A DNA stretch of 41,368 bases from Escherichia coli (lineage in GTDB: Bacteria > Pseudomonadota > Gammaproteobacteria > Enterobacterales > Enterobacteriaceae), in assembly GCF_003334255.1 (NCBI RefSeq), contig NZ_QOWU01000051.1. One strand, written 5' to 3'. Both the position numbers and the translations under genes were made by a program. Shown in pieces: positions 17,092-17,122 of this stretch. The notes under the pieces are model-generated. The model worked only from the letters and a program-made list of their open reading frames with translations, was not told where the DNA came from and made no database searches. Positions within the stretch are counted from its first letter, which is position 1; every line of letters begins with the position of its first letter.

Positions 17092-17122
17092 ACCGCCGGT
17101 AACCCCGGCGGTTTTCTGTTTA
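17092..17122 (+). terminator. Putative intrinsic terminator (8-bp GC stem plus T-run) overlapping the rutG 3' end
   Basis: accgccgg-taacc-ccggcggt followed by tttctgttt. Confidence 0.4.

Follow-up and report, generated by a model that had tools for sequence, protein, structure and literature searches.

A shared terminator hairpin between the convergent ymdF and rutG genes of Escherichia coli, found as one of two copies flanking a BIME-1 element in K-12

Genes and features at the ymdF/rutG junction

The DNA analysed here is a stretch of 41,368 nt from Escherichia coli (contig NZ_QOWU01000051.1), hereafter the window, in which positions 16850-17140 are 100% identical to E. coli K-12 MG1655; NC_000913.3 coordinates are obtained by adding 1,051,391 to window coordinates. 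RefSeq annotation of the identical MG1655 DNA confirmed the genes ymdF and rutG named in a preliminary description of this sequence. The two genes are convergent and separated in the window by a spacer of 256 nt, and the hairpin under study lies exactly at their junction. The + strand transcripts have their source in ymdF, which is also named among the affected genes of entry 79 in the rows of the SEnd-seq table discussed below. The REP elements that had been described as adjoining the hairpin were found at 16963-16991 and 17027-17061, within a BIME-1 element. The features of the locus are the following:

16690-16863, + strand: ymdF coding sequence, 57 aa, con-10 family general stress protein (RefSeq annotation of the identical DNA, ORF list)
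16917-16938, no strand assigned: hairpin copy A, CACCGCCGGTTACCC-GGTGGTT, the ymdF-proximal duplicate, with one C lost and one G.U pair, followed by the BIME-1 end GATACTGATGAC in place of a T-tract
16939-17090, no strand assigned: BIME-1 (RIP/REPIN-type) insertion of 152 nt, with outer motif GATACTGATGACAAATG, REP z (16963-16991), L linker with GCAATATATTGAATTTGCA (17001-19), REP y (17027-17061) and outer motif GTTGTCAACAATCTG
17088, - strand: mapped 3′ end of rut-operon (rutG/F/E) transcripts (…GGCGGUGCAG), 4 nt past the stem; start of the SEnd-seq overlap at 1068479 in the rows of the table used, with a possible 1-nt uncertainty in the source table
17092-17112, both strands: stem-loop of the probable terminator (copy B), stem 17092-17099/17105-17112 and loop 17100-17104, a palindrome folding on both strands
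17113-17122, + strand: T-rich tail TTTCTGTTTA, U-tract of the probable + strand terminator, ending in three bases complementary to the stop codon of rutG
17116, + strand: mapped 3′ end of ymdF-direction transcripts (…GGCGGUUUUC), given as the TRS dominant position 1068507 and as the end of the SEnd-seq overlap, 1068507, in the parts of both tables covering this site
17120-17122, - strand: rutG stop codon TAA
17120-18448, - strand: rutG coding sequence, 442 aa, pyrimidine:H+ symporter (RefSeq annotation, ORF list)

Two variants of ymdF were observed in other strains. Strain LCP30S3_I5 (L005, 391-498) has a shorter allele that lacks one con-10 repeat (108 vs 174 nt), and the gene is annotated as a frameshifted pseudogene in strain 20AR0354 (L217, 8-185).

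Structure and rarity of the stem-loop

Positions 17092-17122 read ACCGCCGG-TAACC-CCGGCGGT-TTTCTGTTTA. The stem consists of eight perfect pairs, seven of them G-C, and closes a loop of 5 nt (UAACC in RNA). The predicted folding energy of the + strand RNA was −15.7 kcal/mol (z = −2.7, with 1/200 shuffles as good), and that of the - strand RNA was −17.7 kcal/mol (z = −4.1, with 0/200 shuffles as good). A terminator scan detects the ymdF/rutG hairpin. At loose settings, the scan of positions 15000-19500 revealed no enrichment of terminator-like sites over shuffled sequences (8 found vs 6.2 expected). A stringent scan for a perfect 8-bp stem with at least six G-C pairs, a loop of 3-8 nt and at least six T in nine was then applied to both strands of the 41-kb window, and it returned three distinct sites, whereas 60 first-order Markov simulations averaged 0.03 and never exceeded 1; this rules out a chance hairpin. 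Sequence, folding and stringent scan thus agree that the 8-bp GC stem, the loop and the T-rich tail of the preliminary description are real. That description had also placed the hairpin over the stop and last codons of rutG. The TAA at 17120-17122 does meet the last three bases of the tail, but no sense codon is overlapped, and the stem-loop itself lies wholly in the rutG 3′ UTR, 7 nt downstream of the stop codon.

The remaining two stringent-scan sites of the window are located at 15443-15465 (-), directly downstream of yccJ (CTCCCCCGC…GCGGGGGAG followed by TTTTCTGTTATT), and at 32006-32029 (-).

The identification of the hairpin as a REP was ruled out on the basis of the Rfam search, BLAST copy number and the REP column of a published table. 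No Rfam family was found for the hairpin, and the search returned just the adjoining REP-derived matches, to ES036 and naRNA4 on BIME-1; these cover mainly 16984-17066, with a sub-threshold naRNA4 alignment reaching 17097 (29.3 bits vs a gathering score of 59.5). The hairpin has no GTAG/CTAC foot, and its sequence is unique and departs from the REP consensus. A BLAST query that joined the hairpin-bearing spacer of the short allele (described below), its T-tail and the ends of both flanking genes matched a median of one place per genome, and the REP column is empty for the ymdF/rutG site in the table of preprint 10.64898/2026.03.23.713779. The ES036 (CssrF) match exceeds its gathering threshold (38.5 vs 37.6) and lies on REP z and the linker at 16984-17026 (-); this family thus appears to be BIME-derived rather than a locus-specific small RNA.

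RNA 3′ ends mapped at the hairpin

Published maps place RNA 3′ ends at this site on both strands. In the portion of Supplementary Data 3 of the TRS paper (PMC10687069) that covers the locus, a + strand 3′ terminus is given at 1068504-1068512, with a dominant position at 1068507 (window 17116), a signal of 0.945, rank 547 and adjusted p values of 1e-3 to 1e-9 in three libraries. The entry is labelled 'rutG antisense', and its predicted hairpin is identical to the one described here; from its position in the file, we took the sheet to correspond to LB RNAtag-seq. Supplementary Table 4 of Ju et al. 2019 (SEnd-seq), which we took from the rows reproduced in the supplement of preprint 10.64898/2026.03.23.713779, contains as no. 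79 an overlapping bidirectional termination site at 1068479-1068507 (window 17088-17116). This entry is described there as 29 nt long, with −15.7 kcal/mol, as gene_convergent_transcription in an intergenic gap region, with rutG:rutF:ymdF:rutE as affected genes and with detection in stationary phase only. In overlapping bidirectional sites, the convergent 3′ ends extend past each other over a hairpin by a few tens of nucleotides, and the 29 nt of entry 79, as reproduced, correspond to that arrangement. In these parts of the two sources, the position of the + strand end agrees between TRS/RNAtag-seq and SEnd-seq.

The preliminary description had pointed to 3′-end mapping on both strands as the way to check the hairpin, and to a lack of ends there as the outcome that would speak against it. 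What the published maps contain is a + strand end at 17116 and a - strand end at about 17088, which flank the hairpin. Other maps gave no signal at this site: the curated Term-seq lists of Adams et al. 2021, covering three conditions, include no 3′ end for ymdF, for rutG or at 10685xx, and the TERMITe supplement includes none for ymdF or rutG. Taken together with the detection by SEnd-seq in stationary phase only, these absences indicate that the signal is condition-dependent or weak.

Allelic forms and conservation of the site

The arrangement found in K-12, with BIME-1 and two hairpin copies, was present in 1,730 of 5,426 complete E. coli genomes (32%). About 68% of these genomes carry instead a single hairpin in a spacer of 82 nt, without BIME-1, with the same tail and at the same distance from the rutG stop codon. 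The terminator is thus located 50 nt after ymdF in the short allele vs 228 nt in K-12. Copy A is a direct repeat with 17091-17105 at a spacing of 174 nt, is also evident from alignment with single-hairpin alleles, and still folds (−15.9 kcal/mol). The BIME-1 of the window contains inverted repeats and is 80-86% identical to BIME-1 copies at unrelated loci. The direct repeats of the hairpin that flank it extend over 16917-16938 and 17091-17113.

According to the scenario that we propose, the ancestral state would have been a single ymdF/rutG hairpin terminator, and in K-12 BIME-1 would have inserted between the stem and the T-tract with duplication of the hairpin, copy B having presumably kept the T-tract and the terminator function. 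A related arrangement was found in a more distant Escherichia (L008, NZ_JAATUR010000045.1), in which two hairpin copies flank a different BIME-1 in the opposite orientation downstream of rutG. The nucleotide identity between L008 and K-12 is 94.6% for rutG and 96.6% for ymdF, but only 84.5% for BIME-1. Since the L008 element is no closer to that of K-12 than copies from unrelated loci are, and has the opposite orientation, the two are independent insertions at one hairpin, each with hairpin duplication. The occurrence of two non-orthologous BIME-1 copies in opposite orientation at one site in different lineages disfavours a history in which the long allele is ancestral and the short alleles arose only by deletion between the copies. 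Recurrent deletion may nevertheless contribute to the short alleles, because these carry either an A-type (TTACC) or a B-type (TAATC/TAACC) loop.

Comparison of 13 diverse alleles within Escherichia revealed zero variation at the 16 stem positions. In the same alleles the loop occurs as TAACC, TAATC, TTACC or TAGCC, or with an extra G (three variable positions plus an indel), the tail is conserved except at position 7, where G, A, C and T are all seen, and the 50-nt spacer is variable at about 10 positions. Invariant stems next to a variable loop and spacer would fit selection on structure; as the stems never vary, they provide no covariation evidence.

A second comparison extended to the RutG loci of 80 species. 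In those outside Escherichia, other genes come after rutG, and it has canonical terminators of its own, acting in its direction and unrelated to the hairpin, which consequently has no orthologue there with which to be compared. In Enterobacter, Leclercia, Pantoea, Serratia, Rahnella and Yersinia (L009-L020, L027), rutG is followed by its own canonical hairpin and T-run, with a different neighbour gene. The convergent ymdF-rutG arrangement with its asymmetric shared terminator was specific to Escherichia.

Termination of ymdF and rut-operon transcripts

It is highly probable that the hairpin and its T-rich tail constitute a Rho-independent (intrinsic) terminator of ymdF-direction transcription that is shared with the rut operon. 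A shared terminator of convergent ymdF and rutG is already known and catalogued. The proposal of the preliminary description that the hairpin could terminate transcription in the ymdF direction is supported by the 3′ ends, which map in the U-tract at 17116. On the + strand, the G+C-rich stem-loop is followed by a U-rich tract, UUUCUGUUUA, with 7 U in 10 nt, or 8 U in 10 when the closing U of the stem is included (UUUUCUGUUU), and the in vivo 3′ ends in the parts of the maps covering this site fall inside this tract, 4 nt short of the bases complementary to the rutG stop. We infer that the + strand end results from intrinsic termination and not from processing.

According to the mechanism that we propose, RNA polymerase would transcribe ymdF and a 253-nt 3′ UTR containing BIME-1, after which the 8-bp G+C-rich hairpin would form and the RNA would be released in the UUUUCUGUUU tract. 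Copy A lies 54 nt after ymdF and has no U-tract, and the portion of the TRS table that contains the 1068507 row holds no terminus labelled ymdF. On these grounds, ymdF transcripts most likely read through copy A and BIME-1 and stop at copy B, giving rise to the 253-nt 3′ UTR. An independent small RNA ending at the hairpin was also considered and was set aside because a promoter scan found no sigma-70-like site inside BIME-1 from which a separate + strand RNA could start.

In the opposite direction, the palindrome would form a hairpin at the end of the rut-operon mRNA as well, 7 nt after the rutG stop codon, with the mapped transcripts stopping some 4 nt further on, near 17088. This would make the site an 'overlapping bidirectional' shared terminator, in which the two RNAs overlap over 29 non-coding nt. 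With the stop codon of rutG 7 nt upstream, the size of the ribosome footprint implies that a ribosome positioned there would mask the hairpin's 5′ arm, so that the hairpin would form on rutG mRNA only after ribosome release. The 'dual use of the same bases' suggested in the preliminary description holds in the sense that the palindrome is used on both strands; the bases involved are not coding ones, the 29-nt overlap being wholly non-coding.

On the - strand, the hairpin is followed by GCAGAUUGUUGA, with only 4 U in the first 10 nt; there is no U-tract, and in the rutG direction the hairpin is not a canonical intrinsic terminator. Possible origins of the end at about 17088 are hairpin-induced pausing with release, polymerase collision, or exonuclease trimming back to the hairpin. 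As regards the proposal that the hairpin protects the rutG mRNA 3′ end, rut-operon transcripts do stop just past it, but 3′-end maps do not separate termination from processing and so cannot tell a terminated end from a trimmed, protected one.

Intrinsic terminators usually produce ends 7-9 nt after the stem. The + strand end, only 4 nt after it, is a point that speaks against an intrinsic terminator, and its shortfall requires some exonucleolytic trimming or early release to be assumed. It is possible, if less than probable, that the - strand end, and perhaps also the + strand end, is a trimmed one, transcription terminating further downstream (at the BIME-1 REPs or by Rho) and 3′-to-5′ exonucleases being halted by a hairpin that would act as a 3′-end protector. 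Such an explanation would account for the lack of a U-tract after the hairpin on the - strand and for the location of both ends, in the map portions used, just 4 nt from the stem, as is typical of trimmed ends; in addition, REPs lie directly downstream on the - strand, and the abstract of preprint 10.64898/2026.03.23.713779 reports REPs as partly Rho-dependent terminators and stabilisers. On the other hand, the + strand has a good U-tract exactly at the mapped end, the short allele of 68% of the genomes has the hairpin alone, with no REP downstream of it on either strand, and the Rho-termination table of Adams et al. 2021 has no entry for ymdF or rutG. Termination driven by collision, as modelled by Ju et al. 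2019 and Wang et al. 2022, is rather unlikely. In that model, the hairpin pauses polymerases arriving from either side, and head-on collision followed by rear-end collision by a trailing polymerase releases the RNAs at defined positions. This would explain a - strand end without a U-tract, and both the presence of the site among the reproduced rows of the SEnd-seq catalogue of overlapping bidirectional termination sites and the 29-nt overlap flanking the hairpin fit the class. However, expression of both ymdF and the rut operon is low in most conditions (base means of ~180 for ymdF and ~110 for rutG in the RNA-seq table of preprint 10.64898/2026.03.23.713779), inefficient termination is what the model itself would give for weakly expressed pairs, and the + strand side, being a canonical intrinsic terminator, needs no collision.

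That copy B would be a passive by-product of BIME-1 insertion, a target duplication without selected function, is very improbable. Copy B is indeed one of two direct copies flanking BIME-1, an arrangement seen at many BIME-1 loci, but genomes without BIME-1 carry the single hairpin with like tail and position, the RNA ends map to copy B, and the stems of copy B are invariant whereas copy A, now without the T-tract, shows decay in the form of one deletion and a G.U pair. The reading as an intrinsic terminator shared with the rut operon is the one that we retain.

Comparison with known systems places the site among the overlapping bidirectional sites of Ju et al. 2019, where it is entry no. 79 of the reproduced table, with a 29-nt overlap centred on an 8-bp hairpin. 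It differs from that class, as far as represented there, in being asymmetric, the 3′ flank having 6 U of 8 and the 5′ flank only 2 A of 8, and this asymmetry makes it a canonical intrinsic terminator in one direction only. With canonical Rho-independent terminators such as the thrL attenuator and the rpsT terminator, as they appear in the TRS table portion used, it shares a G+C-rich 8-bp stem, a 5-nt loop, a U-rich tail and a 3′ end inside the tail; in contrast to them, its U-tract is interrupted (UUUUCUGUUU), its end lies 4 nt after the stem, and its distal tail doubles as the complement of the stop codon of the convergent gene. REP/BIME terminators or stabilisers of 3′ UTRs (the malE-malF REP; REP325, 10.64898/2026.03.23.713779) resemble it in having a palindromic G+C-rich hairpin in the 3′ UTR of convergent genes that could act on both strands, but the ymdF/rutG hairpin is not a REP, the REPs being its neighbours.

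Seen purely as a terminator, the site is nothing new: it is of textbook type, it is included in a published genome-wide catalogue and the genes on either side are weakly expressed. It does illustrate neatly how one palindrome closes two convergent transcription units with no coding overlap. The K-12 and short alleles also offer a natural experiment, in which the terminator follows ymdF at 228 or 50 nt, with or without BIME-1 in the 3′ UTR.

Hairpin duplication at other BIME-1 loci

The only unexpected point of the analysis is that the K-12 hairpin is one of two copies from a BIME-1 insertion, and this duplication could matter more than the terminator itself. Metagenome contigs were scanned for the BIME-1 linker motif, which yielded 46 usable instances in 23 distinct contexts, and the 45-50 nt outside the left and right ends were aligned with each other (cross-locus control: mean 7.0, 99th percentile 12). 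A flank score of at least 13 was obtained in nine of the 23 distinct contexts, about 40% (L184, L131, L135, L162, L103, L194, L201, L124 and L089). In all nine, the repeated unit is a locus-specific terminator-like hairpin of 21-27 nt, and usually a T-tract follows only the right-hand copy, which lies on the y-REP side. Among the other BIME-1 contexts, most have a stable hairpin directly against at least one end.

Pairs of filled and empty sites were available for three loci: ymdF-rutG, fbp-DUF2569 and metE-ysgA. In the latter two, the empty E. coli site has one hairpin and the filled site two, with the insertion between the stem and the T-tract. BIME-1 has imperfect terminal inverted repeats of 15 nt (GAGACTGATGACAAA / TTGTCAACAATCTG).

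From these observations we tentatively propose, with chances that we put slightly below even, that BIME-1 (RIP/REPIN) integrates precisely between the stem and the T-tract of intrinsic terminators and duplicates the whole hairpin, the 21-27 nt of the duplication tracking hairpin size, so that only the copy on the y-REP side would stay functional with its T-tract. If the duplication reading holds, hairpin duplication together with terminal inverted repeats would represent a MITE-like signature for BIME-1; as far as we know, REP elements are usually said to lack such a signature. Class C group II introns target terminator hairpins, and IS elements insert into REPs. The position of BIME-1 directly 3′ of terminator stems, between stem and T-tract, is comparable to these systems. 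To our knowledge, however, neither the introns nor the REP-targeting IS elements duplicate a whole hairpin, whereas BIME-1 is flanked by copies of 21-27 nt. No description of hairpin duplication by BIME-1 was found in the searchable literature, outside which the BIME papers of the 1990s lie, and a prior description is possible. If BIME-1 does regularly duplicate terminator hairpins, this would be a concrete clue to how REP doublets spread, and it would explain how they build up at the 3′ ends of transcription units without loss of termination.

Two further observations were made at individual loci. At fbp, the terminator loop reads AGCAAT in the empty E. coli site (L211:555-590), whereas the two copies in the filled site (L184:11760-11990) both have the reverse complement, ATTGCT; the whole fbp palindrome appears flipped between the two sites. 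Downstream of fruA in the K-12-like strain HST04 (L219:615-800), a stretch of about 130 nt resembling a decayed BIME-1 lies between two related hairpins, CAGGGCAGAAATTTCCTGTCCTG and AAGGGCAGATTATTTTCTGCCCTT. It retains traces of the outer and linker motifs and no REPs; other strains carry an intact BIME-1 there.
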